Shown: positions 99 through 46,934 of the stretch, in pieces
How the letters are laid out: every line of letters begins with the position of its first letter
Position numbering within the stretch: the first letter of the stretch is position 1
Virus record (IMG/VR): IMGVR_UViG_3300030376_003371
Coordinates: 1-58,425 of that record
DNA: 58,425 nucleotides
Strand: one strand, 5' to 3'
DNA from: a virus
Lineage: Duplodnaviria; Caudoviricetes
The notes under the pieces: generated by a model
What the model was told of the DNA's origin: nothing
Databases searched by the model: none
What the model saw: only the letters and a program-made list of their open reading frames with translations
Program-made: the position numbers and the translations under genes

Positions 99-3000
99 AG
101 CAGGTAAACTTGTTGAGGCAGCAACTTCTAAATAGAATTTTTTAAATGCTTCTTTAGCTTTCTCTTCATCCTTCGTACCCATAGCTCTGTTAGCTAACTT
201 TAATAATCTTTGAAGTTGCATTAATGGAGCAATACTTCTAACGCTTTCTCCTGCATATGGCTTACCTTGTAGTAGGTCTGCAGTTCCACTTATCACTTCA
301 CCCACAATAAACAATGCATTCAAGTTACCTATAATTGCAGCTCTTAATAAATCATCATCATCTTCATCACGCACCGGTCTTAATAATCCCGGAAGTCCTA
401 ATGCAACATACTGAAACAATACCGGAGCAACTAAATGATAAGTAACAAACGTTCTAAGGTTCTGTCCTAACGTTCCTTTACCTGCGTTTCTATCCCAAGC
501 TTTTACTTTACGATATAAATTACGAGTTGATTGTATTTCTTTTCTTAAATATTGTTTAGGTGTAGTCAAGAACATATTCAATCCTCTTTGAAGTGCTCCT
601 GCAGTTTGATAGAAGTCTCTATCTTGTAGGTCCATAGATTGCTGTGTTCTTTTTGTATCTCTTTCAAACTTAACTATAGCTTCTTGCTGAGCTTCCTGTT
701 CAGTCTTTCCTTGCTTTAATGCTTGGTCTTTATAATATAAATAGTTAGGCATACCTCCTAAATAGATTGCCGCCTTATCCCCAAACTTAGTTGTGTACAT
801 AATAAAGTTTACATAGTTATCCCAATACTGATTAGGAACCATCTCAATCATTCCATCATTACTATAAGACTCTATTATCCTTGTTATAGATTGTTTGTTT
901 CTGTCTTGCATGTACACAGAATTCTTGGATATTTCTTTGACAGTCTTTATCATTTGAGGCACACTCTTTAATGAATACTTCAACCAATTTCCATAACCAA
1001 TATCATTACCATAGGTAATCATAGAAGTCAACTGCTTTATCATTACAGTAGGGTTCAGACCAATCCTTGAAAAGATAAACAGATTGTTCATTTTATTTAC
1101 AAACCTGTCTGCTGAATTAGTTCTTATACCTTGGTTAGCAATCTTACCAATCATATTACTAATCAATCTATTAACATAGTCCCCATGAATAGCAGCTATA
1201 GATTCACGCACTTGCTTATTACTAAATATTTTATTTATACTATTGATGGTTTCTCCGTAAGCAGCAAAGTATTCCATGTCACGCAGATAGGTTGACATCA
1301 CATTCATAGAGTTCATCTTTCTAATCGGTAAATTATTTTGTACCCTAGCTTTAGTTGATGAAGTTCCAACTGATGTATTCATTATGCTTTTATCTGCAAG
1401 TAAGTCAAGAGGTTGTTGCTCTATTGGGTTTCCTTGTGGGTCGTTTCGATATATCATACCGGAATAATATCTATTCCATGGCATGTTAGTTCTGTACAAT
1501 GCTTTATATGTGTTGTTGTAATGAGAGTAAAGAGAAGGATAAAATTCATTCACTTGCCAATCACCAAACTCTTTAATACTATCATCCATATTTGCCTCCA
1601 TCTCTTCCATAATTCTAGCAAAGTCTTTCCCAAATGTTGCTTTAAAAGAACCTCTGTTTGCAGGGTCCTTATATAAATTATAGTAGTATAGCATTTCGTT
1701 TTGAGACATCTCTACTTCATTCTCTGCTAATACTTCCTTAAGTATTTGTTTGTTCTTTAAACTTGGGTCGTTGTTAAAATTTTCTTTTGCTTTTGCCACA
1801 GCTTCAGGGTCAAGAACGTAAGCCACTTGTGGTTTGTTGTGAGCTCTTACTTGGTTTCTCCACTTCTTACCATACAATTCTTCAAGTTTAGTAGCAAGTA
1901 TCTCTTCTTGCTGCATCATTCTACCTTTATACATTCTTGTTGAGGCATCAACTCTTGCAGTAACTAACTCTTGAAGTCTACCGCCAAACATTTCTCCCGG
2001 AAGTTTAGATATTAAATCCATCAGTCCATCCAATGCTTCGGTTTCATTGAAGAATTTTTTTACATTTGTCTTAAGAGTATTAACAAACTTTGCAATTATA
2101 TTCTTAGTTCTTTTTTGTTTTTTGTTTCGCAACTTCTGATTCATTGAATCAAGCTCAACTCTAGCATCAGGGTCACCCATGTCAACTTTTTCTCCGGTGA
2201 TATCTTCAATTGCAATTGAAGCTTCATCGTTATACTCGTTGTGTTTATCTTGAAGTTGCTGTTTAAGTTCACTTCTACCCTGCTCAATCATTTCTGTAAG
2301 AGATGCAAGTGCTACATCCAATGACCCTGTTTTATTAACGTCATTGTTCTCCATAGTTAGAGCATTGTTAAGGTTTAACAAAATCTGAATATCAACCAAT
2401 CGACTCATGTCACCTTCCGATAAAACATTTTTTTGACGAATTTGATTGAACTCTTCAGTTAAATTTTTATTTGTATTCTCTATGTCTTCAGCTGTTGCAG
2501 TAGATGAGAGTCTGTCTTTTGCAATCCTCTGTATTCTTTCTTTTATATTAAGACTAATCTTCGCAGCTTTCTTTCTACCTGATTGTTTAGTTTCATACTT
2601 TCCATTCAGGATATTATCTATTTGCTTTTCTAACCTTACGTTATTCTTAGTATTAACAAACTCTATTATTTCATTAAATAAATTTTCTATTTGCGCAGTA
2701 CTACCTGCGTCAGTTATTTGTCTTACAAGCTTCATCACTTCACTACGAGTATATAAATCTGCCGGTAAAGATTTTCTAAGAAAGTTTCTCATCGCAACCT
2801 TTACGCTTTGTAAATCTACAGCACCACGCTTTCTTTGTTGAAGCATTCTTCGAGCCTCAGTAAGTTTCTCTTGTACACTTTCACTTGTTCTTGTACCTAC
2901 ACTTCTTTGAAACTCTACTTGAAGCTGAGCTTGTTTAGTTGTTAACCCTTTACTTCCATCGCCTTCGTTTTTATACTCAGGTTGTTTCTGTAAGTATTCT

Positions 3001-6000
3001 ATAGTTTGGTCCGCTATTTGTTGTTCTGTAAGCTTGACCTTTTTTCTCTTGTTGGAGTTGATAAGCTTTTGCTCAAATGCTTTTACTCTTTTATATAGTT
3101 TAAGTCCTGATTCTACACCACCTTCTATATTGGTAAAGCTTTTAGGAAGAGTTTTAAATAAATTAACATCTACTTCCATTATCTTATTGACTAATTTGGC
3201 AGGATATTTTTTAACTCTTACTAAGAAATCTTTTATTACCTCGTCTCTAAAGTTAGAATCTCTTGACTCATTTATAATATCAGTTATTTCTTTTTGTTGT
3301 CTACCTCTTCTTGAAGTAACTTCTTTTACTCCTGAACCATAAGGTGCTACCTTTTGACTAGTAGTAGTTCTACCTGCACCCTCCATTGACTCTCTCATTT
3401 CCTTTGGCATCAATTCAAATGCATCAATCTTTGTGTCAGGAACACCTACAACTTCTCCAAGAATAGTATTGGTATAAGTAGAATGGTTAGAACCTTCCTT
3501 GACTCCTGTTGGTTTTAACACCATCATGATATCATTTTGTTGGAAGTTGTTCTCTGCATAGAAACCATCTCTAAAAATTTCAGGGTCAATAAAACCATCC
3601 AACTCTTTAACGAGTTTGTGATATGCTGTGTTAGGAGTTTTACCTTGAGCAATATGCGCAATCAAAAAGTTTTTTCTTACTGAACCATCAGCTTCTTTTA
3701 TTTCTTGCCAACTATCATACTCTGTTAGCACATCTCTAACACCCTTAACAGGTTTAGTTTCTAATGCCTTCTCTTTAAATGTAGCGTAGTCGCCAAGCTT
3801 ATCTGTATATTTATCGTATACCTTTTTATTAAACAAGTGACTCTTTGATGGTGAGCCACTAATAATAAATATATAATCAGCTTTGCCTATATTTTTTTCA
3901 AGTGTTTTTTTAGTTAAACTACTTGCCCATATTTCACCTTCTTTTTGTAGTGCGTAACTTGGACCTGCATCTATATCCATCTCTGCATCTAAACCTAATT
4001 GGTCAGCTACCCAAAACCAAACCTTCTGACCTTTGTCTGCAATGGTATCAATTAATGAATCAATATCAATTTTTTTAGCAGAGCTTACTAAGGATAGGGG
4101 GTACGAGTCTTTAAATTTTATCTTCTGTTGTCGCCCTTTACTCTTTGGTTTTACAATAGTAGTTGGATTACCTATTGGGTTTGTACCATTATCAAGTTCT
4201 TCTAATGTAGCTATGTCAGCTTGTTCAATCTCTTCACCGGTTCTAGTTTTTCTAGCTAAGGTGTTTAATAAATCAATTATATCTCTATCAGTTTTTGTAA
4301 ACTGTGAACCTAAGTCAATTCCAACTTTTGAAGCCATACTTTTTATAAAGTTTACAATGGCATTTTTAGATGGCTTAGTTAAACTCTTATAGTCTGATGC
4401 CATCATTCCAAATAATTCTGACAATGCTTCTTCATTAGCTATCGACATACCTTCAGATTGGTATGCTCTTTCAAACGCATCCATTCTGTTTGCCATCAAA
4501 CTATTTTTATCTAACGTCTTACGAACAGAGCCAATCATTTTAGTTACTGCTTCAGCAGTTTTAGTCTCTCCTAAAGTATTAAATAACACAGCATGAAAAA
4601 CCTCATGAGGTACAGTTGTAGCTGTAGCTCCTTCAAGATTAATGTGAATAGTATTATTATCAAAATCAAAAAAACCTCTACCTTCAGGAGCAACTTTATT
4701 AAACTCGTCTATAGATTCATGAAGAACTATTTTTGTCTTAGGTAATATTGTCTTGATAGAGTTGGCTGCTTTGGACGCAATGTCAATCACCATTCCTCTC
4801 ATAGATTTTAAATCAGGTGTAAGCTCACTACCTCTTTTTCCTTTTCTATTAAAGAATAAATTGTTTTGAGTAGTCGTTTCTGTTTGAGTTTCTTCTCCAA
4901 AGAATCCTTCAATATCAGCTCGTTCTTCTGTTGTTACATCAGTATCTTCTTGAACCTGCTCATCAACTTGCTCTTGAACACCAAGCTCAGGAATTGATTG
5001 CTCTAATTTGTTTTGATTTTCTAAGTTTGTTTCCGCTGTACTTTGAATACCTTCAAGAGCAGTATTAATATCATTTACTCTTGCCTGTTCCTTTTTAACT
5101 AGCTCAGGTGCTTTACCTTCCATTTTAGATTCTAAGGTTTGCTTTTCTAATAGTAACTGTAAAGCTTCTTTTTTCTGTTGAGTCGTATAATCTGTAGGTA
5201 CTTTAGGAGCAAGACCTTCTAACTGCTCAAAGTTTTTTAATTCTGCGTCTGCTTCTTTCTGTGTTTTTGTTCCGGCTGCTACCTCTTGTTTTAGTTTGGT
5301 AACAAACATAGTTTTATATTGAGGGTCAGACATGATGCCTTCAAAGATTTTAAAGACCCCATCATCTACTTCAGGCAATTTTCCTCCCGCAGCCATGTTT
5401 GAAACAGCAGGTATCACACCTAATGTAAAACCACCGACAGCTTCTTGAGCACCGGCATACATCATTTGAGATGCAACGTCTATAAATGTATCAGGGTTTT
5501 GAAATAAATTTTTTCCTTTAGATGCATCAAATATTTCTTTAATACCTATCGTTGCGCCTTCTTGCAAGAATCCTGTTTCAAATTCTGCAAGTCCACCTGC
5601 ACCTATTGTAAGAACTCCTCGTGCAACCATCTGCTTAACATCTTGTCTTATAAATTCTTGAAATGTTTTTGCTGTAGTTTTTTCCGTAGATTGACCTAAA
5701 GCTCTAGCAATCACACCGTTTAACAATCCTTTTTGTTGAACAATGTTTCTAAAACCTATAGCTTCTAATGCACCTACTGCAAGACCTACCGGTACTTTAA
5801 CAAAATACTTTTCATTCTCAGTAATCTCATCAAACGCAGGGTCCTTTGACATCTCTTGGTCTATGTGGTCACTAGTAAGAGCATACATCTGTGCTGTTCT
5901 TTGAATCATACCGGGGATTCCTTTACCACCAATCATGGCAGGTAAAGATTCTGCAAGACCTAAAAATGCACCACCCCAAAAACCTTGCTTTTGAAGATTT

Positions 6001-7616
6001 GCCCATTGCTCTGTAGTAGATTGGTCTCCCAACACTTGTACCATACCTGCTCTTGTAGCGTCTAACATTCCCATTTCAGTATCAAAATAATTTGACTGTA
6101 CAGAAAATGGATTACCCGCAGGTCTTACATTACCTGTTGTTCTAAATCTATCATACGCATTTGGACCATAATACTTTATAGCTTTTTTATAGGCATCTTT
6201 AGTTCTGCTTATAGAAGACTCAACTAAATTTTCTCCATCTTCAGTTGTAAGATTACTTAAAATACTTTGAGCCTCTTTAGCATCATATTGTGATAGTGAT
6301 TTGCTTAATGCAATCTTGTCTTCTTCCGTTAGTTCGTTTTTATTAAGTAAACTTTTTATTTCATCTGACCCCTCTCCTTTTCCTATATACTGATACTTTT
6401 CAGGAGACTCTATAAACCTTCTAAGCGCATCATTAGTTATATCACTTTGAAGACTAGCTTCGTTATAACCCATCTGCATAGGATTTACTTCAACAAAAAA
6501 GTCTGTCATTACATCTACTGCTTGTGAAGCGAATGAAGAAGCTCCTTTCATCGCAGCATTCCAAAGACCACCGGACCAAGTACCTTGTGTGCTTTGCATT
6601 TGCACATATCTACCTACCTCTTGGTCAAGTAGTGCACCCTTTTCGGAAAAGGTTTTTTCTTTTTCTTGAAGCTTACTGAAAGCTCCCATCAAATCTTTTT
6701 TCTGATTAATATATGTTTGATAGGCTGCTTTTTTTTCAGGGTTACCTTTTATATCACTAGCAGAAAGACCTGCGAATTGAGCTTCATATAACTTATCAAG
6801 CTCTGCTTTGGCATTTGAAAACTCAACTACTTCTTGTCTAAAGTTTTCTGTCTGCTCATTAAAAAGTTTAACAGTAGCTTCTATTTCTTTTTCATCTCTT
6901 ATTTGCTGATTCTTCTTTTCAATTCTAGAAGTGGTTGCAGCTAGTCTATTTTCTGATTCAACTCTGTTTTTTTCCAAAAAATTTCTAAGCTTTGCAGCTT
7001 CTGCTGTTTCAGTTGCACCCATCATAGGGTCTAAGTCTATAGATATTTTTTCTCCATTTGCAGATTGAACAACCATTGCATCTCCGATACCTGTCTCTTC
7101 AAAAGTAAAACCATAATCATTGAATCTATAGTTTAAATCAGGCACAACGAACTCTTCTTCTTTGTCTATAAGTTTATTGGTAATAGTGCTTAAGCCAACA
7201 TCGAATGGGTCTTCGATTTCATCAGCTAATAGAGTTCCTGCAAAAGGGTCTTCAACTTCTTCCTCTGTAATAGATGATTCCGATGAAACATTTTCTGTCT
7301 CCGATTGTAAAGGTGATTCCAAACCTTCGGGGACTTCGGGTAGATTTGGTTGGTCCAATCCGATTGGATTTTTTTTTTCCGGGTCATCTGTCGAGACAAT
7401 CTCCGTTTCTTCTACAACATTAGTTGAATCTCCAAAGCCAACAAGGGTCTTGAACTGATTAATATCTTTCTGATAACCCTCACCTTTAGCAACATTATAC
7501 ATATTGTTAAGTGCCTCTTCATTAGACCCCATCAAAACTTTAAAGTCTTCAAAAGATTTAGAGTAGCCTTCTGCTTGTGCTAAGCTATATAATTGTTGTA
7601 CTGCCTCTTCGTTCAT
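1..7616 (-). CDS. Giant (~2600 aa) virion ejection/polyvalent protein with a zincin metallopeptidase motif; 5' part, continues across the origin to 58139
   Basis: ATG at 7616 (MNEEAVQQLYSLAQAEGY...). Open frame read by hand to base 1. HEVFH at 4593-4607 followed by EEALSELFG. Last gene of the ejection cluster. Absent from the ORF track because it runs off the edge. Confidence 0.88.
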   Translation of the reverse strand, partial: MNEEAVQQLYSLAQAEGYSKSFEDFKVLMGSNEEALNNMYNVAKGEGYQKDINQFKTLVGFGDSTNVVEETEIVSTDDPEKKNPIGLDQPNLPEVPEGLESPLQSETENVSSESSITEEEVEDPFAGTLLADEIEDPFDVGLSTITNKLIDKEEEFVVPDLNYRFNDYGFTFEETGIGDAMVVQSANGEKISIDLDPMMGATETAEAAKLRNFLEKNRVESENRLAATTSRIEKKNQQIRDEKEIEATVKLFNEQTENFRQEVVEFSNAKAELDKLYEAQFAGLSASDIKGNPEKKAAYQTYINQKKDLMGAFSKLQEKEKTFSEKGALLDQEVGRYVQMQSTQGTWSGGLWNAAMKGASSFASQAVDVMTDFFVEVNPMQMGYNEASLQSDITNDALRRFIESPEKYQYIGKGEGSDEIKSLLNKNELTEEDKIALSKSLSQYDAKEAQSILSNLTTEDGENLVESSISRTKDAYKKAIKYYGPNAYDRFRTTGNVRPAGNPFSVQSNYFDTEMGMLDATRAGMVQVLGDQSTTEQWANLQKQGFWGGAFLGLAESLPAMIGGKGIPGMIQRTAQMYALTSDHIDQEMSKDPAFDEITENEKYFVKVPVGLAVGALEAIGFRNIVQQKGLLNGVIARALGQSTEKTTAKTFQEFIRQDVKQMVARGVLTIGAGGLAEFETGFLQEGATIGIKEIFDASKGKNLFQNPDTFIDVASQMMYAGAQEAVGGFTLGVIPAVSNMAAGGKLPEVDDGVFKIFEGIMSDPQYKTMFVTKLKQEVAAGTKTQKEADAELKNFEQLEGLAPKVPTDYTTQQKKEALQLLLEKQTLESKMEGKAPELVKKEQARVNDINTALEGIQSTAETNLENQNKLEQSIPELGVQEQVDEQVQEDTDVTTEERADIEGFFGEETQTETTTQNNLFFNRKGKRGSELTPDLKSMRGMVIDIASKAANSIKTILPKTKIVLHESIDEFNKVAPEGRGFFDFDNNTIHINLEGATATTVPHEVFHAVLFNTLGETKTAEAVTKMIGSVRKTLDKNSLMANRMDAFERAYQSEGMSIANEEALSELFGMMASDYKSLTKPSKNAIVNFIKSMASKVGIDLGSQFTKTDRDIIDLLNTLARKTRTGEEIEQADIATLEELDNGTNPIGNPTTIVKPKSKGRQQKIKFKDSYPLSLVSSAKKIDIDSLIDTIADKGQKVWFWVADQLGLDAEMDIDAGPSYALQKEGEIWASSLTKKTLEKNIGKADYIFIISGSPSKSHLFNKKVYDKYTDKLGDYATFKEKALETKPVKGVRDVLTEYDSWQEIKEADGSVRKNFLIAHIAQGKTPNTAYHKLVKELDGFIDPEIFRDGFYAENNFQQNDIMMVLKPTGVKEGSNHSTYTNTILGEVVGVPDTKIDAFELMPKEMRESMEGAGRTTTSQKVAPYGSGVKEVTSRRGRQQKEITDIINESRDSNFRDEVIKDFLVRVKKYPAKLVNKIMEVDVNLFKTLPKSFTNIEGGVESGLKLYKRVKAFEQKLINSNKRKKVKLTEQQIADQTIEYLQKQPEYKNEGDGSKGLTTKQAQLQVEFQRSVGTRTSESVQEKLTEARRMLQQRKRGAVDLQSVKVAMRNFLRKSLPADLYTRSEVMKLVRQITDAGSTAQIENLFNEIIEFVNTKNNVRLEKQIDNILNGKYETKQSGRKKAAKISLNIKERIQRIAKDRLSSTATAEDIENTNKNLTEEFNQIRQKNVLSEGDMSRLVDIQILLNLNNALTMENNDVNKTGSLDVALASLTEMIEQGRSELKQQLQDKHNEYNDEASIAIEDITGEKVDMGDPDARVELDSMNQKLRNKKQKRTKNIIAKFVNTLKTNVKKFFNETEALDGLMDLISKLPGEMFGGRLQELVTARVDASTRMYKGRMMQQEEILATKLEELYGKKWRNQVRAHNKPQVAYVLDPEAVAKAKENFNNDPSLKNKQILKEVLAENEVEMSQNEMLYYYNLYKDPANRGSFKATFGKDFARIMEEMEANMDDSIKEFGDWQVNEFYPSLYSHYNNTYKALYRTNMPWNRYYSGMIYRNDPQGNPIEQQPLDLLADKSIMNTSVGTSSTKARVQNNLPIRKMNSMNVMSTYLRDMEYFAAYGETINSINKIFSNKQVRESIAAIHGDYVNRLISNMIGKIANQGIRTNSADRFVNKMNNLFIFSRIGLNPTVMIKQLTSMITYGNDIGYGNWLKYSLKSVPQMIKTVKEISKNSVYMQDRNKQSITRIIESYSNDGMIEMVPNQYWDNYVNFIMYTTKFGDKAAIYLGGMPNYLYYKDQALKQGKTEQEAQQEAIVKFERDTKRTQQSMDLQDRDFYQTAGALQRGLNMFLTTPKQYLRKEIQSTRNLYRKVKAWDRNAGKGTLGQNLRTFVTYHLVAPVLFQYVALGLPGLLRPVRDEDDDDLLRAAIIGNLNALFIVGEVISGTADLLQGKPYAGESVRSIAPLMQLQRLLKLANRAMGTKDEEKAKEAFKKFYLEVAASTSLPAIQIDRFIKNIDKLGEGDTPADVLRILNFSPYV

Positions 7617-32669: not shown

Positions 32670-33623
32670 CTAAGGAGTACAGTTAGTAAAATTAGGTTTC
32701 GGTAAGGTCCAAGATGATGCACCGTCACTAAAATCAACACAATTGGTTACATTGTTTACTGCCCAACCACTTAAGTCTTGATTGAACGCAGTCGCATCTT
32801 CAAACATTTCCCTCATATTAGTTGCGCTACTCACATCCCAACCACTTATGTCTTGATTAAAAACAGGGTTCTTTTCAAACATAGATTGCATATTATTCGC
32901 ATTACCTACATCCCAAGAACTTATATCTTGATTGAATGTCATACTACTACCCCTGAACATACTATCTAGCCTGTTAGCAGAACTCACATCCCAACCTGAG
33001 ATATCTACATTAAAAGAGTTGGCACCAAAAAACATCTGATGAAACTCAAGTCCATTTGAAACATCCCAACCACTTATGTCTGCATCAAACAGAATAGCTC
33101 CATTAAACATAGTTGCAAAATCATCTACATTGCTTACATCCCAACTACTTAAGTCTTGGTCGAAAGCCTGACAATTACTAAACATTGCAGCCATATCATC
33201 TACATTGCTTACATCCCAAGAACTTATGTCTGAATTAAAAACCAAACATCCGTTAAACATTCCATTCATTCTAATAGCACTACTTGTATCCCATGAACTT
33301 AAATCGGGGTCAAAGCTTGTACAGAATCCAAACATTCCATTCATCTGCGTCATGCTACTCACATCCCAAGCTGAAAGGTCTCCGTTGAAATTAAACCTTC
33401 CATTAAAAGCAAGAGTGGCAGTAGTCACTTGACTAACATCCCAATCTTGAATTTTACCATAAGGGAATAGGTCGAAATTTCCGTTAACGTCTTGCGCTAA
33501 TATATCGTTTATTGCTGTTTGAAAAGTTGCATCTGTTAAGGGCACAGGAGGATTAGGACTAGGTTGTCCTGATTTGTTTTGTAAAAAACCTATGCCGGAT
33601 GCTATGCCAATTCCTGTTGGCAT
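32670..33623 (-). CDS. Putative head-spike fibre with DUF285/BspA-like 25-aa repeats
   Basis: About ten WDVS..M..MF....FNxDxS repeats; GIGIASGIGF N-terminal peptide; follows the spike-base gene. Confidence 0.8.
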   Translation of the reverse strand: MPTGIGIASGIGFLQNKSGQPSPNPPVPLTDATFQTAINDILAQDVNGNFDLFPYGKIQDWDVSQVTTATLAFNGRFNFNGDLSAWDVSSMTQMNGMFGFCTSFDPDLSSWDTSSAIRMNGMFNGCLVFNSDISSWDVSNVDDMAAMFSNCQAFDQDLSSWDVSNVDDFATMFNGAILFDADISGWDVSNGLEFHQMFFGANSFNVDISGWDVSSANRLDSMFRGSSMTFNQDISSWDVGNANNMQSMFEKNPVFNQDISGWDVSSATNMREMFEDATAFNQDLSGWAVNNVTNCVDFSDGASSWTLPKPNFTNCTP

Positions 33624-40629: not shown

Positions 40630-42228
40630 TTAATTTTTCTTTCTATGCATCGTAATGATTGCATTGGTTGATAATAATGTAACTGCTACGCTAACTGCAT
40701 TTTGTAAAGCGGACCTTGTTACTTTCACCGGGTCTATAACTCCCATCTTTATTAAATCTCCCCACTCTTCATTCTTTACATCTAATCCCTCACCCCATTT
40801 TCGGTCAGGATTCTTTTCATACAAGTAAACGTCCATTCCTGCGTTACGCAGTATTTGAACTAACGGAGCTTGTAACGCATTTCCTAAAATTGCGTAAGCA
40901 ATTTTTTTTGTTGAATTTTTGTCACACTCTTTAGACTTGTCTAAATATTCCTCGCCTATTGTAAACAATGACAATCCTCCCCCGGGGAGTATGCCTTCTT
41001 CTAGAGCTGACTTAACTGCACATACTGCATCGTCAACTCTATCGTATAGTTCTTTTTGTTCGAGGTCTGTATTACCTCCAACATAGATTACTCCTATACC
41101 TCCTGTAAGGGAAGCGATTCTTTTTTCTATAAAGCTTCTCAGCTGTTTATCTTTAGCTGCACTATGTTGAACCCATAACTCTTCTACTCTTGTATCTACT
41201 GCATCTTGATTTTCTGTAGCATCATCCTTAATGATGATACTTGAGTCACGACCAACTATCACCTTGGAACAATGACCCAAGTCACCAAAGTTTATCAAGC
41301 TCAAATCATCTCCGGTTTCGCCACTAAAGTAAGTAGCTCCAACTGCAAGAGCAATGTCGTTCATAAGTTCATGTTGTCTATAACCAAAGTCAGGTGGTGC
41401 AATGTTTACAATCTTAAGACTGTTCTTCATTACATTCGCTGCCATTGTGTTAATGAATCCTTGAGAGCATGGAGCAATAATCAATAACTTCTTTTGTTCA
41501 TTGATAATTGTTTTCAATACATTCTCAATTTGTAATATACTATTTATTTCGGTATCACATACAAGCACATGCACATCCTCATGTATACATTCGTCATGCT
41601 TATGGTTATTAATAAACAAGTGTGATGTCCACCCTCTATCTATCTTAATACCCTTTGTGCTTTCGTAATACGTCTCATGGGTTTTGGATTTCTCCACAGT
41701 CACTATCCCATCTTTACCAACTTCTTTATATACATCAGCTATTTGTTTTCCAATCTTCTCATCGTTGTTGGCTGAGATAACTGCAACATCTTTTAATTTA
41801 TTACCTGCTATCTTTTTACCTTTCTTGTGAAGCTGACTAATAATAGATTGAGATTCTTCCTGTAGTATTTTTAATACCTCAGTATTGTTGGTCTCCTCAT
41901 CTATTAATTCCATACCGGCTTTGACTAAAGCTTCGGTAAGTACAATTGCTGTTGTCGTTCCATCTCCTGCTGAGGTTGCAGTCTTATCAGCTGCTTCCTT
42001 CATGATACGAACCGCTAGGTTCTCCACAGCGTCTAAAAGAAAAATAGACTTAGCCACAGTCACACCATCCTTGGTTACTGTGATTCCATGTGTATGTTCT
42101 TGAGATTCAATGAGGACTGTATTTCCTCGGGGACCCAATGTAGACTTTACTGCCTTAGCTATTTGTGTTATACCGCTAAGTAACTTTTCTCTACCATCGG
42201 AATCGAAGTGTAGTTGTTTTGGATTCAT
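40630..42228 (-). CDS. groEL: Chaperonin GroEL
   Basis: TLGPRG, TKDGVTVAK, AGDGTTTA, DRVDDAVCAVKSALEEGILPGGG, GVIDPVKV; no GGM tail. Confidence 0.97.
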   Translation of the reverse strand: MNPKQLHFDSDGREKLLSGITQIAKAVKSTLGPRGNTVLIESQEHTHGITVTKDGVTVAKSIFLLDAVENLAVRIMKEAADKTATSAGDGTTTAIVLTEALVKAGMELIDEETNNTEVLKILQEESQSIISQLHKKGKKIAGNKLKDVAVISANNDEKIGKQIADVYKEVGKDGIVTVEKSKTHETYYESTKGIKIDRGWTSHLFINNHKHDECIHEDVHVLVCDTEINSILQIENVLKTIINEQKKLLIIAPCSQGFINTMAANVMKNSLKIVNIAPPDFGYRQHELMNDIALAVGATYFSGETGDDLSLINFGDLGHCSKVIVGRDSSIIIKDDATENQDAVDTRVEELWVQHSAAKDKQLRSFIEKRIASLTGGIGVIYVGGNTDLEQKELYDRVDDAVCAVKSALEEGILPGGGLSLFTIGEEYLDKSKECDKNSTKKIAYAILGNALQAPLVQILRNAGMDVYLYEKNPDRKWGEGLDVKNEEWGDLIKMGVIDPVKVTRSALQNAVSVAVTLLSTNAIITMHRKKN

Positions 42229-42254
42229 TTTAAATTTAATTAGATTATACTTAG

Positions 42255-42262
42255 CAAATATA
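42255..42262 (-). promoter_or_regulatory. Bacteroidota -7 promoter element for groEL
   Basis: TATATTTG upstream of 42228. Confidence 0.65.
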
Positions 42263-42286
42263 AAAAAATAATTTTTAATATGAATA

Positions 42287-42473
42287 TGTTGAGATGTCGA
42301 CTTTTTATCTCCCTTACTCTCTCTCTCTTATTATACACATGAATATTTTATTTCCATATACGAGGCTTTAAACTTAACATAGTTAACATTTTATAATTAA
42401 CATATTGATTATCAATTAGTTACAAAACTAAAGTCAACATAAAGTTAACATAAAGTCAACATAAGGATAACAT
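42287..42473. other. Origin-like element, copy 1 (11-bp iterons plus IHF-consensus sites)
   Basis: AAAGTCAACAT/AAAGTTAACAT/AAAGTCAACAT/AAGGATAACAT at 42430-42473; WATCARNNNNTTR on both strands at 42398-42422; core shared with 51536-51690. Confidence 0.6.
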
Positions 42474-42477
42474 ATAT

Positions 42478-42512
42478 AAAAAGAAAAGAGGCTACCAAGT
42501 GGTAACCTCTCT
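42478..42512 (-). terminator. Probable intrinsic terminator
   Basis: AGAGGTTACC-ACTT-GGTAGCCTCT followed by TTTCTTTTT on the minus strand. Confidence 0.7.
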
Positions 42513-42571
42513 TTATATGGTTAGTCAAAACACTACTAAAAACTAACCTAACACAAACTACTCGCTATAGT

Positions 42572-42772
42572 CTATCTTTTAAATAAGTCAATGTTAGCTT
42601 GGGATAACTCATTACCCTCTGCTATCATTTGAACCTTTTCATATCTTTTTGCGGAAGCTCTCATTTGAGCTAACTTAGTAATTCCCATCTCAGGTGATGG
42701 TGCCATATTAATAAGTCTTCCGTCTTTTACTTCATAACCTTGCATTGAAGGTGGAATATTAAATCGTCTCAT
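42572..42772 (-). CDS. Hypothetical protein
   Basis: 66 aa with its own TATCTTTG promoter (42795-42802) and terminator. Confidence 0.7.
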   Translation of the reverse strand: MRRFNIPPSMQGYEVKDGRLINMAPSPEMGITKLAQMRASAKRYEKVQMIAEGNELSQANIDLFKR

Positions 42773-43156
42773 AGTATTATCTTTTGTTCACCTACAAAGA
42801 TAGTAAAATTTTATTTAGATACTCAGGGCATTTGGGTTATATATAGCGACACGCAACCCGACCCCCTCAGGAAAACGATATTTTTTTTGTTTGACCTTGA
42901 CATTTTCAAAATCGCATGTCTGATTTTTTTGCCTTTTTTTTTATGGGGTACCCTACCCCCTCTGTTAGTTGTAGTATTTTCTCCCTGTATACGTTACACC
43001 ACCATTCACCCCCTGTTGACCTCTGTCCTTCCCTCCGTTAGACCTTCCCCTAACCCACGCATGAACTGAACAAAAGTTTTAAAGAAGACCTTCCCTTCGT
43101 TAGTACCTGTATGAAGTCATTTGACCTAAAACAAAACTACATAATCTCACATAATT

Positions 43157-43181
43157 TAATTCATTGATAATCAGCGAGTTA
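43157..43181. promoter_or_regulatory. Double IHF-consensus site upstream of the early promoter
   Basis: AATCAGCGAGTTA (+) and TATCAATGAATTA (-) both match WATCARNNNNTTR. Confidence 0.5.
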
Positions 43182-43287
43182 AAAAGAAAATAACAAAATA
43201 ATTAAAAAAAAGTTTGGTAGTTAAATATATTTAGACGAGATTTGTTAAAAATTTAATAATTATTTAAACATTTAAACACTTACAATT

Positions 43288-43473
43288 ATGACACATTTAA
43301 ACACAAACGCAGTAACTGATAACACAATCACAAACAAGGCACAAGAGCAATTCCTTCTTGAAGACATAGTAGAGAGAGATTTTGCTTTAGGACTGATAAC
43401 TGAAGACGAGTACGAAGTAGAGATACAGAAAATCTACTATAGCTTTGCAGATTTATACGGATTTCCTGCGTAA
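43288..43473 (+). CDS. First early gene, small acidic protein
   Basis: 61 aa; leader TAAACACTTACAATTATG. Confidence 0.75.
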   Translation: MTHLNTNAVTDNTITNKAQEQFLLEDIVERDFALGLITEDEYEVEIQKIYYSFADLYGFPA

Positions 43474-43496
43474 ATCAAACAGGGGTCTTTGACCCC

Positions 43497-43546
43497 TCTG
43501 TCCAAGGGAATGTCCCTTGCTGATGAGACGAAGAAGTCGAAACAGA
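43497..43546 (+). ncRNA. Type III hammerhead ribozyme (HH1), predicted cleavage after C43502
   Basis: UCU-GUC, stem I CAAGGG/CCCUUG, CUGAUGA, stem II GAC/GUC, GAAA, CAGA closing stem III; complete canonical core. Confidence 0.92.
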
Positions 43547-43574
43547 AAATAATATATATATAAACACTACAATT

Positions 43575-43718
43575 ATGAAATCAATTTTAAACTTTAACAT
43601 CGTTGAAAAAGCAATCATGTTCACTCTAACGTCACTTGTGGCAGTAAGTTGGACAATGTTAGTCTTCCATATGTTAACAGAAGGAATTGTTGCATCCTCA
43701 TTCGGTATTTACGGATAA
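43575..43718 (+). CDS. Small membrane peptide (47 aa) between the two hammerheads, not in the ORF track
   Basis: MKSILNFNIVEKAIMFTLTSLVAVSWTMLVFHMLTEGIVASSFGIYG; leader TAAACACTACAATTATG nearly identical to that of 43288. Confidence 0.8.
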   Translation: MKSILNFNIVEKAIMFTLTSLVAVSWTMLVFHMLTEGIVASSFGIYG

Positions 43719-43724
43719 ATCAAC

Positions 43725-43752
43725 AGAACCTGAGCAAGTTCTTAAACTGCTT
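43725..43752 (+). ncRNA. Predicted H-type pseudoknot directly 5' of HH2
   Basis: Stem 1 AGAAC/GUUCU, stem 2 GAGCA/UGCUU, linker UAAAC. Confidence 0.6.
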
Positions 43753-43801
43753 CTGTCGTAAGGTGTGTACCTTACCTGATGAAGCAAAAGCAGAAACAGA
43801 A
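43751..43801 (+). ncRNA. Type III hammerhead ribozyme (HH2, variant stem II), predicted cleavage after C43757
   Basis: UUCU-GUC, stem I GUAAGGU/ACCUUAC, CUGAUGA, A-GC-AAAA-GC-A, GAAA, CAGAA. Confidence 0.8.
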
Positions 43802-43822
43802 ACTTAAATTAAATCTTAAACA

Positions 43823-44758
43823 ATGAGTAACACAAACGCAGTCGCAAAGAAAGTAAAAGCTACACTTCTTGAAGGACTTAAAAAAGATGGCTTACAATGG
43901 TTCAAACCATGGAAATCAGGATTAAATTTTCCTATCAATAACAAATCAGGTAGAGCATACCGAGGTTTTAATACTTTCATCCTGAACGCTGAGATGAAAG
44001 AGAAAGAGTACAAGTTTAACGAATGGGATACCTTCAAGAGCATATCATCAAGAGGTGGTAAGGTCAACAAAGGTGAGAAAGGAACAGACGTTTATTTTTG
44101 GTTAATATCTTATACTGCCATGGGTGGTTCAGGTAAATGGTACAGAACCAAAGCCGAATGTATGAAGAATGAAAATTGTACTGAAGCAGATATATTTACT
44201 AATTTCAATCTGAGATTCTACAGAGTTTGGAACATCGCACAATGTGAAGGTTTGTCTCCAAGAAGAATAGAAGACGAGACGAAAGTTGTACACGAGCCAA
44301 TCGAAAGTTGCGAGAATATAGTATCTAACTATAAAAAGATAGCTAAGAAGTTGCAAATCGTTGAATTAGAGCAAGATAAAGCATACTATTCACCTTCGAA
44401 AGATAAGATAGTGATGCCACTAAGAAGTCAGTTTAGTAAATTAGATAAATTCTATCACACACTATTTCACGAAATGGTTCATTCAACAGGTCATGACTCA
44501 AGGTTAAATCGTGAAGGAGTTGCTACGGCAAATATGTTAAACAAGACCAAACATGATTATGCATTTGAAGAGTTAATTGCTGAGTCAGGTGCAATGATGT
44601 TGTCAGGTATGTCAGGAATTGAAACCAAAGACGAAGACAAGCAGAGTCAAGCGTATGTTAACGGATGGGTCAAAGCAGTAGAGAAAGCCAACGAGAAAGC
44701 AGTTGTATCTGCTCTAACGCAGTCAGCCAAGGCAGTTGACTACATCTTAGGAGAGTAA
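43823..44758 (+). CDS. ardC: ArdC-like antirestriction/ssDNA-binding protein with a zincin domain
   Basis: WFKPW...PINNKSGRAYRGFN...WDTF...GGKVNKGEKG...VWNIAQCEG; AYYSPSKDKIVMP; TLFHEMVHSTGH..RLNR; YAFEELIAE. Confidence 0.92.
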   Translation: MSNTNAVAKKVKATLLEGLKKDGLQWFKPWKSGLNFPINNKSGRAYRGFNTFILNAEMKEKEYKFNEWDTFKSISSRGGKVNKGEKGTDVYFWLISYTAMGGSGKWYRTKAECMKNENCTEADIFTNFNLRFYRVWNIAQCEGLSPRRIEDETKVVHEPIESCENIVSNYKKIAKKLQIVELEQDKAYYSPSKDKIVMPLRSQFSKLDKFYHTLFHEMVHSTGHDSRLNREGVATANMLNKTKHDYAFEELIAESGAMMLSGMSGIETKDEDKQSQAYVNGWVKAVEKANEKAVVSALTQSAKAVDYILGE

Positions 44759-44768
44759 TCTCCTTACC

Positions 44769-44813
44769 TTCAGGAATGGTTGCAAGGGGGTTCGATTCCC
44801 CCTCCTGAAACTA
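44769..44813 (+). ncRNA. Minimal tRNA mimic TL1 (acceptor stem plus T arm only)
   Basis: TTCAGGA/TCCTGAA 7-bp stem, 10-nt linker ATGGTTGCAA, GGGGG-TTCGATT-CCCCC, then A-CTA. Confidence 0.75.
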
Positions 44814-44835
44814 ATTTAATTTAATATATATAACT

Positions 44836-44949
44836 ATGAATGCAAAACGTTTAGGCAAGTTAGCCAAGAAAATTCAAAACATCATGTTGGTTGTGATACC
44901 ATCGTATTTTATAATCAGGATACTTGTATCCGTAATCTTTGGAGTATGA
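44836..44949 (+). CDS. Small membrane peptide (37 aa), not in the ORF track
   Basis: MNAKRLGKLAKKIQNIMLVVIPSYFIIRILVSVIFGV; ATGA overlap with the next gene. Confidence 0.7.
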   Translation: MNAKRLGKLAKKIQNIMLVVIPSYFIIRILVSVIFGV

Positions 44950-45173
44950 TATATATAATTAGCATGAAATCAATGTGGGGTAATTACAGGACGTTCCTAA
45001 AGGACTTCAATGATGAGCAACACATGAACAATTGGGTGAACCTTATGATTAGAAAAGGTCATAAGATTATAGGTGTACAACGTCAGTACATGAACATCGC
45101 AAAACATCGCAAGGAAATGCAGTTGGAACATAACCAAGCTAAAGCAAGGCGAATAAGAAAATATAATATATAA
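44946..45173 (+). CDS. Hypothetical early protein
   Basis: 75 aa, translationally coupled. Confidence 0.7.
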   Translation: MIYIISMKSMWGNYRTFLKDFNDEQHMNNWVNLMIRKGHKIIGVQRQYMNIAKHRKEMQLEHNQAKARRIRKYNI

Positions 45174-45193
45174 CTGCGAAAAACACAGAAAAA

Positions 45194-45225
45194 CTTGCAT
45201 ATGTCGAAATTTTGTCGTATGTTTG
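45194..45225 (+). promoter_or_regulatory. Bacteroidota sigma-A promoter
   Basis: CTTG ... TATGTTTG (45218-45225), about 18 nt before TL2. Confidence 0.7.
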
Positions 45226-45242
45226 TCGAAATTCTGATTAAA

Positions 45243-45316
45243 AGTAGGAGCATGGTGCAAGTAGAGGGAGTTGAAAACCCTTGAAAATTGAAGTTCGAAT
45301 CTTCATCCTACAACTA
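45243..45316 (+). ncRNA. Degenerate tRNA-like element TL2
   Basis: GTAGGA/TCCTAC acceptor, GCATGGTGC mini D-arm, GAGGG-AGTTGAAAA-CCCTT arm, TGAAG-TTCGAAT-CTTCA T arm, then A-A-CTA. Confidence 0.7.
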
Positions 45317-45334
45317 AGATTAAATATATATAAC

Positions 45335-45694
45335 ATGGAAAAAAAACACTACATCTTTGATTACCTCAGCACAGCTGACGGATACGAAATCGGTTGGCTA
45401 CATGAGGACACACAAAAAAATATTAGCGACCCTGATTCAGAATTATTCTATGATAAATATGGGATGATGGAGTCTGCGAAAGAGTTAGTTCTTGAGGGTC
45501 ATGAGTTTACTAACTATTGGTTAGATGAATCTGACATTGATGAATGGATTGAAGAGAGAGATAGATGCGAAACCTGTGAAGGAGAAGGCACTATCATCTG
45601 TCCAACTTATGATGACCCATACAACGAAGAACCTTGTATGGATTGTCAGGATGATGGTTCAGATTTAGCTTACGAATTATCAGTAGGCAAATAA
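45335..45694 (+). CDS. Acidic protein with a C-terminal CxxCxGxG...CxxC zinc finger
   Basis: CETCEGEG...CMDC; start moved to ATG 45335. Confidence 0.75.
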   Translation: MEKKHYIFDYLSTADGYEIGWLHEDTQKNISDPDSELFYDKYGMMESAKELVLEGHEFTNYWLDESDIDEWIEERDRCETCEGEGTIICPTYDDPYNEEPCMDCQDDGSDLAYELSVGK

Positions 45695-45709
45695 TATATA
45701 TATAATACA

Positions 45710-45802
45710 GAACAGGTGCTACCTTGGTGGTCGGAGTGGTTTGTAAGATTTGACACATACGTTAGTTTAAAAACAGAGGTTCGAATCCTCGCCTGTTCTC
45801 TA
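45710..45802 (+). ncRNA. tRNA-like element TL3 with a non-canonical interior
   Basis: GAACAGG/CCTGTTC 7-bp acceptor, GAGG-TTCGAAT-CCTC T arm, then T-CTA. Confidence 0.65.
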
Positions 45803-45821
45803 ATTTTTAAACACTACATAT

Positions 45822-46934
45822 ATGAAACAAATAGTTCACAATGATTATTCTTATTTGGATAAAATAGAATGGTCAGAAAACGTTCAGAATATGGTGGTTA
45901 GTTTCCACCATCTGACAGGAGACAGGATAGGTCAGAGAATTGATATTCCTGTTCAATTTAATCATGGCAAGATTTGGGATGCCTTAATCGAAAACAAAGT
46001 GTTTGTTGACAACGAGGAACTGAAAGCAAAAGTCCTCCACAGAACAGACCAAGCAGTTAAAAACAGAATCGCAAAGAAAGTCACGAACTACAACAATGGG
46101 GTAGATATATATAATGCCCTGACTAAACTTGAGGTAAAGGATAGACGTAAAGATAGATATACTGATGGCAGGTTTGATGGCAAGGTTGAGCCAAGCGAAA
46201 TAATAAAGACAGACTACGAGAATTATCTATCTGATATTAACTTCAGCTTCAAGATTGATTGTGAGTATGATTACGATTACAGGAGGTATGAGGGTAGATA
46301 TACATATAAGAACTCTTATGCTCATGAGTCTGTGACCTCTGAGTATTGTAATATTGAAATAAAATTTAATATTAAAAGTTCATGTGAAGGAACAGGTCTG
46401 TTTTATAAAGTGCCACACTTTACCTTAGACTTTGTTTTCACCAACAAATCGAATCAAGAAGACAAGATTGATTTGATTAGGAGTAGTGCTTTTGATAAGG
46501 TTTGGAAGAACGGAAAGCATCACACTAAAATGACATTTCAAAGCTACTACCTTCGTGACAACTCTCGTTATGTAAACCTAAATACATTTCTTGTTTACGC
46601 AAGAGAGAAATCACAAACCAATAAAGATATGTATAAGCGTGAGATAATGGAGACAACCAACAAAGACAAAGTGCAACAAGAGATTGCTGATAAGTATCCA
46701 AATGCAAATGTGTTTGTGAGAAGCTCCTACAAGAGAGACCTCACCCATCACGATGAATATTGGGGAAGGTATAGTAAGGATTGTATTTGTGTAGAGTTCA
46801 AAGACAAGAGCTATATATTATATTCAATTGCTGATGCTAAAAGAGGAGACCAAGAAATCATTGGGGTGTACGACTCAGAGTATAAAAAACCTGAGCAAGA
46901 GGAGTTAATAGAATTAATAACTAACAGAAACTAA
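45822..46934 (+). CDS. Hypothetical early protein (370 aa)
   Basis: Long ORF; leader TAAACACTACATATATG. Confidence 0.8.
   Translation: MKQIVHNDYSYLDKIEWSENVQNMVVSFHHLTGDRIGQRIDIPVQFNHGKIWDALIENKVFVDNEELKAKVLHRTDQAVKNRIAKKVTNYNNGVDIYNALTKLEVKDRRKDRYTDGRFDGKVEPSEIIKTDYENYLSDINFSFKIDCEYDYDYRRYEGRYTYKNSYAHESVTSEYCNIEIKFNIKSSCEGTGLFYKVPHFTLDFVFTNKSNQEDKIDLIRSSAFDKVWKNGKHHTKMTFQSYYLRDNSRYVNLNTFLVYAREKSQTNKDMYKREIMETTNKDKVQQEIADKYPNANVFVRSSYKRDLTHHDEYWGRYSKDCICVEFKDKSYILYSIADAKRGDQEIIGVYDSEYKKPEQEELIELITNRN

Follow-up and report, generated by a model that had tools for sequence, protein, structure and literature searches.

Paired hammerhead ribozymes bracket a small single-gene unit in a marine phage genome and are predicted to process its polycistronic RNA

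The genome of a marine phage of the Caudoviricetes (IMG/VR record IMGVR_UViG_3300030376_003371; 58,425 bases, rated complete (99%), analysed at its full length and called the window below) carries on its + strand two type III hammerhead ribozymes, HH1 and HH2, on either side of an open reading frame (ORF) of 47 amino acids (aa). We propose that both are intercistronic processing sites and that the 255 nucleotides (nt) between their predicted cuts, 43503-43757, form a linear monocistronic messenger RNA (mRNA), a reading to which we assign a probability of about 70%. Judged by core, pairing and covariance score, HH1 and HH2 are genuine members of a phage hammerhead lineage in which helices II and III are short and helix III nearly always contains CUGU/ACAG, and self-cleavage is predicted for both. 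The arrangement has been known since 2011; added here are the smallest unit seen, a frequent hairpin upstream of the ribozymes, the recurrence of A.A and U.U mismatches in helix II, and mixed hammerhead topologies before ArdC-like genes.

HH1 occupies positions 43497-43546 and HH2 positions 43751-43801. In HH1, the 5' strand of helix III (UCUGU, 43497-43501) is followed by C17 at 43502, helix I (43503-43519, 7 base pairs (bp), loop AUG), the core segment CUGAUGA (43520-43526), helix II (43527-43538, GAC-GAAGAA-GUC), GAA (43539-43541) and the 3' strand of helix III (ACAGA, 43542-43546). The corresponding parts of HH2 are UUCUGU (43751-43756), C17 at 43757, helix I (43758-43775, 7 bp), CUGAUGA (43776-43782), helix II (43783-43792), GAA (43793-43795) and ACAGAA (43796-43801). 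Helices III, I and II comprise 5, 7 and 3 base pairs in HH1 and 6, 7 and 2 in HH2; helices I and II each end in a loop, and helix III is open. The type III core is complete in both ribozymes (CUGAUGA, GAA, the A-U closing pair A15.1-U16.1, and C17). At position 10.1-11.1 HH1 has a G-C pair and HH2 an A.A mismatch, which in HH2 is followed by two G-C pairs and the loop AAAA. The hammerhead fold of HH1 is its minimum free energy (MFE) fold, at -14.7 kcal/mol. Cleavage is predicted between C43502 and C43503 and between C43757 and G43758. The coordinates 43503-43757 (255 nt) given for the bracketed RNA in a first-pass annotation of this DNA are therefore exact, as direct reading of the sequence confirms.

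The evidence that these elements are ribozymes comes from motif counts, covariance models and compensatory change. The CTGATGA..GAAAC motif occurs four times in the window, with 0.33 matches expected, and none of 100 shuffles reached four. Rfam found no ribozyme in the whole window at the gathering score or at E <= 1; the filters of the whole-window search lose HH1. When Rfam Hammerhead_3, whose gathering score is 48.5 bits, was applied to 2.3 kb, HH1 scored 35.3 bits (E 2.7e-5) and HH2 was unlisted even at E 10. The orthologous ribozyme of L005, one of the related viral contigs that carry L numbers here, scores exactly 48.5 bits with Rfam. Two further models were built: R1, from a 7-sequence alignment of the two window copies and five copies from relatives, and R2, a covariance model rebuilt solely from 142 matches in other phages and containing no window sequence. 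With filters off, R2 gave 65.9 bits for HH2 (E 4e-14) and 60.1 bits for HH1 (E 1.2e-12), and over the 58,425 bases it found no further match at E 1. The motif matches at 33036 and 40314 (- strand) were rejected as hammerheads; they lack helices and gave no score with R1 or R2. In the 7-sequence alignment 91.8% of cells pair, compared with 29-45% when the partners are slid, 9 of the 16 pairs are changed on both sides, and the covariation score was reached by none of 500 shuffles. Among 114 distinct sequences, 96.4% of cells pair (32-45% when slid) and 15 of 16 pairs show change on both sides, in an alignment that is model-fitted, which favours these figures.

Both ribozymes are intergenic and lie on the coding strand; a stop codon precedes them by 24-33 nt, and a start codon follows after 21-28 nt. 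HH1 follows a 61-aa ORF (43288-43473, +), the first gene of a + strand block, whose stop lies 24 nt before the ribozyme. Between the ribozymes lies the 47-aa ORF (43575-43718, +), and 21 nt behind HH2 starts an ArdC-like gene (43823-44758, +; ArdcN, PF08401, 1.6e-20, with a zincin-like metallopeptidase domain, PF18818, 2.2e-27), whose 5' end HH2 would define. From its 5' end, the stretch between the predicted cuts comprises the 44-nt body of HH1, 28 nt of A/U-rich spacer with the leader in it, the ORF, and a trailer of 39 nt, the last part of which is the 5' strand of HH2 helix III. The claim that this fragment holds a full leader and one complete hydrophobic ORF is borne out by the ORF list, which places 43575-43718 inside it behind a 25-nt leader. 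A simple terminator scan found no + strand terminator-like site within 42200-46000. On the - strand, the hairpin before HH1 together with a T-rich run (43481-43497) fits the same scan, a match that is probably incidental because no - strand gene lies upstream of it.

A scan of IMG/VR for the helix III and core pattern returned at least 119 stretches. There were 142 type III matches in 89 other phage loci, and the loci fetched held 47 distinct neighbouring same-strand hammerhead pairs, the window's own included. The spacing within these pairs runs from 255 nt in the window, the smallest interval, through ~305, 364, 369, 389, 391, 411, 423, 450, 463, 517, 522, 531 and 665 nt and onward to 10 kb. 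Fewer than 1,700 nt separate the ribozymes in 34 of the 47 pairs, and a single ORF fills at least 66% of the interval in 28 of these 34. The short intervals have medians of 88.5% ORF filling, a 22-nt leader and a 50-nt trailer, and by the same measures the window unit (72% filled, 25-nt leader, 31-nt trailer) fits the pattern. The flanked genes are diverse and include DUF3150, DUF2201 peptidase/VWA, GGACT and unknowns. Within this continuous series of single-gene units bounded by hammerheads the 255-nt unit is the smallest, and nothing marks it as special: it happens to carry the smallest gene. The earlier proposal that cleavage frees a one-gene unit, with a 5'-OH and a 2',3'-cyclic phosphate as its predicted ends, is thus supported by analogy with the other phage units, and the singular standing given to this RNA is not supported. 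The densest hammerhead runs seen in the survey were L048:9060-10446 (- strand, four ribozymes) and L049:852-1667 (three), spaced 369-531 nt apart, with one ORF of 86-139 aa in each interval.

On the proposed reading, the 61-aa ORF, HH1, the 47-aa ORF, HH2, the ArdC-like gene and the genes onward would be co-transcribed as one + strand block, and the RNA would cleave itself co-transcriptionally at each trailer/leader junction. Each downstream product would begin inside the helix I hairpin, which buries its 5'-OH, and its start codon would come 21-28 nt after the ribozyme; each upstream product would end in a 2',3'-cyclic phosphate a few nt behind a hairpin. A polycistronic RNA would in this way become a set of single-gene mRNAs, the stability and translation of each uncoupled from its neighbours. 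By analogy with RiboJ, the arrangement would be a natural version of a ribozyme insulator. The original paper on the RiboJ insulator is reportedly that of Lou et al. from 2012. In E. coli, RiboJ brought a roughly 2-fold gain in transcript and a 2- to 10-fold gain in protein (Clifton et al. 2018, PMC6206723). For prophages, the excerpted text of Perreault et al. (2011, PLoS Comput Biol, PMC3088659) describes single genes flanked by multiple hammerheads, reports that polycistronic constructs of ~2 kb cleave in vitro and that a triple arrangement flanking ardA does so also in E. coli, and proposes processing into single-gene mRNAs for clustered phage hammerheads. A 2019 review repeats that proposal as a suggestion needing more work and still calls the role of genomic hammerheads in bacteria and phages open (PMC6765202, in excerpt).

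Several points weigh against this reading. Neither HH1 nor HH2 reaches the Rfam gathering score, and the survey loci were gathered by the helix III pattern, which biases the sample to this ribozyme lineage. Six of the 34 short intervals hold several ORFs or none instead of a single one that fills them. No promoter was found for the block: a Bacteroidota-type consensus had no match near 42773-43287 and gave four matches, with 3.07 expected, none of them near the block. The expected effects on stability and translation draw on E. coli and on synthetic biology rather than on this host. Finally, HH2 lacks the 10.1-11.1 pair, a mispair on which Perreault et al. rejected candidates, and when folded in isolation its hammerhead structure, at -12.4 kcal/mol, loses by 4.1 kcal/mol to a competing fold (-16.5 kcal/mol) in which 43748-43753 pair with the core and the 5' strand of helix II. 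The mismatch and the competing fold together make it uncertain how well HH2 cleaves, and it may cut slowly or conditionally.

These properties of HH2 favour an alternative in which good cleavage is confined to HH1, HH2 being slow, conditional or dead. Transcripts would then end up chiefly as the 61-aa mRNA and as a longer RNA from 43503 carrying both the peptide gene and the ArdC-like gene, with the free 255-nt species minor or condition-dependent. In addition to the competing fold, this alternative can draw on the combination of A10.1.A11.1 with just two G-C pairs in helix II, on the missing Rfam match, and on the excerpted statements of Perreault et al. that candidates with a mispair next to the core are rejected unless tested and that slow phage hammerhead variants are possibly regulated (PMC3088659). 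We nevertheless consider it unlikely. HH2 outscores HH1 under the independent model R2, energy models leave out loop-loop tertiary contacts, and the competing fold, as compared by eye, is not kept in the related ribozyme of L009. Among 114 distinct phage hammerheads, position 10.1/11.1 is G-C in 72, U.U in 25, A.A in 7, G.U in 5 and other in 5, and the rest of helix II covaries, as expected of tolerated variants under selection. The same excerpt names U.U at the start of stem II as a natural, active variant and two-pair stems II as common (PMC3088659). In the alignment of the 142 matches (L005-L093), 24 ribozymes have an A at the cleavage site (H17), and 21 of these 24 have the U.U mismatch; the two features appear to be coupled.

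Directly upstream of HH1, and abutting the 5' strand of its helix III, lies a G+C-rich hairpin (43482-43496, +; GGGGUC/GACCCC, loop UUU), which could stack on the short helix III. After the predicted cut only 6 nt would separate this hairpin from the end of the upstream RNA, whose 3' part would read hairpin, UCUGUC>p. Hairpins of this type also precede the hammerheads of L005, L006, L007, L008 and L011. The 35 nt upstream of HH1 fold at -9.3 kcal/mol. Across 116 distinct hammerheads, the corresponding 35 nt have a mean of -8.29 kcal/mol, compared with -3.53 for controls taken 200 nt upstream and -3.61 for shuffles; 53% of the hammerheads reach -6 kcal/mol or better, compared with 21% of controls and 18% of shuffles (Mann-Whitney p 5.6e-8). 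Because bacterial 3' exonucleases need a single-stranded 3' tail, we infer that the upstream hairpin protects the 3' end of the preceding mRNA. Before HH2 there is a weak hairpin (43725-43742, +; AGAAC/GUUCU, loop CUGAGCAA) that lies in the trailer and is common to the trailer of the L009 hammerhead, and the 35 nt upstream of HH2 reach -3.5 kcal/mol. The 3' end of the 255-nt unit therefore has, if anything, less protection than those of the neighbouring units. The loci as a whole suggest a general marine-phage layout of gene, hairpin, ribozyme, leader of ~22 nt and next gene.

ArdC homologues with 39-78% identity were found on nine viral contigs, and a tenth contig is L131. In five of the ten contigs a type III hammerhead lies just upstream of the ArdC homologue (for example L005:2913-2968). 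These five, L005, L006, L007, L008 and L011, have the order 61-aa homologue, G+C-rich hairpin, one type III hammerhead, ArdC, and the hammerheads at their 61-aa/ArdC junctions differ in the sequences of helices I and II. These are the closest kin of the window, which at this junction carries one leader-ORF-trailer unit and one ribozyme more than they do. In L007 the ArdC gene is bracketed by hammerheads (2893-4003), the second just behind the gene, and the same gene block as these two type III ribozymes holds two further hammerheads of type I (4624-4681 and 6283-6345); the hammerhead fold of the first of these is the MFE fold (z -3.29), and one phage thus mixes topologies. L009 has the gene order reversed, ArdC first, with a ribozyme behind ArdC and before the 61-aa homologue. 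In L013 the ArdC start is preceded, at a distance of 22 nt, by a type I hammerhead (2922-2972) that was recognised by eye and from the MFE fold. Rfam found no ribozyme on L010, L012, L013 or L131, though L013 folds as a type I hammerhead; at the ArdC junctions of L010, L012 and L131 no hammerhead was found. The ribozyme goes with the junction, not with a particular sequence or gene.

The intergenic regions of the window are mosaic. Compared by eye, both outer flanks of the window's ribozymes match L005 and L006: the trailer and hairpin before HH1 correspond to what follows the 61-aa homologues there, and the leader after HH2 to what precedes ArdC. The trailer before HH2 matches the one before the L009 ribozyme, so that the break points fall inside the ribozymes. 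This mosaicism is what would be expected if the ribozymes mattered mainly at the DNA level or as a historical trace: the hammerheads would serve as short homologies for swapping leader-ORF-trailer cassettes, the peptide gene would have arrived by such a swap and brought the second hammerhead with it, and cleavage would be of little consequence here. The variable gene order among the relatives, with ArdC before the 61-aa homologue in L009, and the position of the peptide homologue elsewhere and without hammerheads in relatives fit as well. Even so, we hold this explanation to be very improbable as the main account. Helices I and II covary freely around an invariant catalytic core, which points to selection on RNA function rather than on DNA homology, and cleavage as the trait under selection is favoured by L013, where a type I hammerhead stands in for the type III at that junction. 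Cassette exchange and RNA processing are, moreover, not mutually exclusive.

The 47-aa ORF encodes a predicted single-pass membrane peptide of a small conserved family. A set of 5.8 billion proteins yielded three close homologues, each of 47 aa and 91-94% identical, and a profile search of 1.84 billion representative proteins yielded seven representative clusters at E <= 1e-3. The family alignment keeps W26, H32, G37 and the C-terminal SFGIYG, and there is one hydrophobic segment, residues 13-31, with a Kyte-Doolittle maximum of 1.94. The description of the product as a hydrophobic peptide is thereby upheld, and the check on conservation that accompanied it found the ORF to be conserved. Neither this ORF nor the 61-aa ORF matched a Pfam family, and the neighbours of the peptide in the Protein Atlas were unnamed clusters alone, at 0.83, within chance range. 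Type III hammerheads flank the peptide gene in none of eight homologue loci (L005, L006 and L133-L138). A degenerate pattern for the SFGIYG stop followed by a hammerhead found no stretch in other viral contigs, in a scan outside which near-identical records possibly lie, and a metagenome scan for the same HH1-peptide-HH2 arrangement returned solely peptide homologues at 41% identity. Because the peptide homologues lack flanking hammerheads, the ribozymes belong to the junction and not to the peptide. The suggestion of a role in superinfection exclusion is speculative. Transfer RNA (tRNA) genes lie close to peptide homologues in L006 (4940-5013, Rfam 62.9 bits) and L134 (2194-2267, 69.6 bits); the window has none.

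The first-pass annotation had read the 255-nt RNA as a circular or otherwise long-lived mini-mRNA, as in retrozymes. In this reading the fragment is joined end to end, by the reverse hammerhead reaction or by a host RtcB-type ligase, into an exonuclease-resistant circle that encodes the peptide. A 5'-OH and a 2',3'-cyclic phosphate suit both routes. In one concrete form, the 3' end UUCUGUC>p docks on ACAGAA of HH1 and rebuilds a nicked hammerhead, and the reverse reaction or host RtcB closes a translatable circle. The closing helix would have 6 pairs, where the native helices have 5 and 6, and the nicked hammerhead is rebuilt at ~1.9 kcal/mol above the MFE. RtcB is present in a control Bacteroides genome, and tandem ribozyme pairs enclosing segments of 186-399 nt are reported from RNA viruses (PMC13725137, in excerpt). 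If such a circle formed, it would be the first case of a bacteriophage making a circular mRNA that codes for protein, and it would give lasting expression of a membrane peptide from brief early transcription. More widely, on this reading, leader-ORF-trailer units bounded by hammerheads would be cassettes that can be swapped both as RNA and as DNA.

We regard a circular 255-nt mRNA as very unlikely, and closure by the docking route just described as having only a slight chance. Over the 47 neighbouring pairs the closing helix has a mean of 3.68 pairs, whereas the means of the native helices are 5.98 and 6.13; in 30 of the 47 neither native helix is as short, and in 17 the closing helix has 2 pairs or fewer. 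Where the spacing is under 700 nt (15 pairs), it falls short of both natives in 6 cases and is down to 1 pair in 3. Matching of the closing helix is thus not conserved, which indicates that circle closure is not selected. The window's own closing match uses the commonest helix III sequence, and most of the apparent closure compatibility follows from the near-constant CUGU/ACAG, to which the sample is also biased. The phage has no RtcB or RNA_ligase-family gene, though a host enzyme could act. The fold of the 255-nt RNA is no more stable than that of shuffles (z = 0.22), unlike that of rod-like circular RNA replicons. The unit is present in one copy, with no repeats beyond the ribozymes: the sole direct repeat linking its two sides is the ribozyme itself, 29 nt at 72%. 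The eight peptide homologue loci without flanking ribozymes and the weakness of the unit's 3' hairpin (-3.5 kcal/mol) also speak against a circle. According to the excerpted text of Perreault et al., circular or spliced products of clustered phage hammerheads were sought and none was detected, with data not shown (PMC3088659), and we found no report in the literature of a natural hammerhead-derived circular RNA from a phage. Four sequencing runs, none on record as RNA, had 8-13% of the sequence words; over 42300-45300 they gave short, low-depth contigs from relatives that leave 43513-43811 uncovered, with no joints and no pile-ups of ends, a negative that bears on neither expression nor circles. 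The suggested circular or long-lived state is accordingly not borne out: closure is not conserved, the phage has no ligase gene and the 3' hairpin is weak.

Read as a linear processed unit, the locus most resembles the prophage clusters of Perreault et al. (PMC3088659). In the excerpted description of those clusters, as in the window, same-strand intergenic hammerheads bracket varied single genes or short blocks, an anti-restriction gene lies directly behind a ribozyme (ardA there, ArdC-like here), and stems II are weak with mismatches at 10.1/11.1. The window differs in being a free marine phage genome rather than the prophage of a cultured bacterium, in having the smallest unit seen in our survey (255 nt, 47-aa ORF) and in carrying A.A rather than U.U in HH2. 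The frequent upstream hairpin is not mentioned in the excerpted article, whose supplements may already hold the hairpin or related marine sequences. With Rfam RF00008, which covers viroids, satellites and plant genomes, the window ribozymes have in common the core, the three-helix topology, an open helix III and hairpins I and II capable of loop-loop contact; they differ in their short helices II and III and in scoring below gathering (35.3 bits and no match, against 48.5).

RiboJ is likewise a hammerhead in a 5' untranslated region (UTR) that trims upstream context and leaves a structured 5'-OH, and it makes downstream expression context-independent and often higher (PMC6206723, in excerpt). 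It was, unlike the window ribozymes, engineered from a satellite RNA with an added downstream hairpin; in the window, the extra hairpin lies upstream, on the 3' end of the preceding mRNA. Retrozymes and viroid-like circular RNAs likewise have a few hundred nt between two directly oriented type III hammerheads, with ends suited to ligation, but the window unit is single-copy in a double-stranded DNA phage, has a conserved protein-coding ORF and is without long terminal repeats or a rod-like fold (compared with the excerpted PMC7761336). In fungal and plant RNA viruses, ribozymes in UTRs lie just before ORFs, sometimes as tandem pairs enclosing 186-399 nt, and cleavage promotes translation of the downstream ORF of the linear RNA (Lopez-Galiano et al. 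2026, PMC13725137, in excerpt); those viruses, unlike this phage, have eukaryotic hosts, cap-independent initiation and RNA genomes.

The locus offers a compact test bed, with two ribozymes, a 47-aa gene of reporter size and an anti-restriction gene within 1.5 kb, and the upstream hairpin and the A.A/U.U variants of helix II are concrete, testable features. If the layout works as an insulator, it would be nature's equivalent of RiboJ and could supply many orthogonal parts for use in hosts without Shine-Dalgarno-led initiation.

Nucleotides 43200-45000 had no blastn match in a phage database. The + strand block begins after 515 nt free of long ORFs and continues beyond the ArdC-like gene with more small genes. 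Divergent to it lies a gene for a Cpn60/GroEL-family chaperonin (40630-42228, - strand; PF00118, 2.8e-56). The region 42900-43060 is C-rich and ORF-poor and contains fragments resembling the HH1 hairpin with the 5' part of helix III (CCCCTCTGT, TGACCTCTGTCC), without a hammerhead core; the region may represent a relic, an origin or a regulatory region. The 14-nt sequence AACACAAACGCAGT forms an exact direct repeat at 43300-43313 and 43829-43842, near the 5' ends of the 61-aa ORF and the ArdC-like gene, and gives both proteins a common N-terminal NTNAV. Mini membrane proteins abound in the block: another small hydrophobic ORF, of 37 aa (MNAKRLGKLAKK...) lies at 44836-44949 and, compared by eye, is kept in L008 at 5254-5367.

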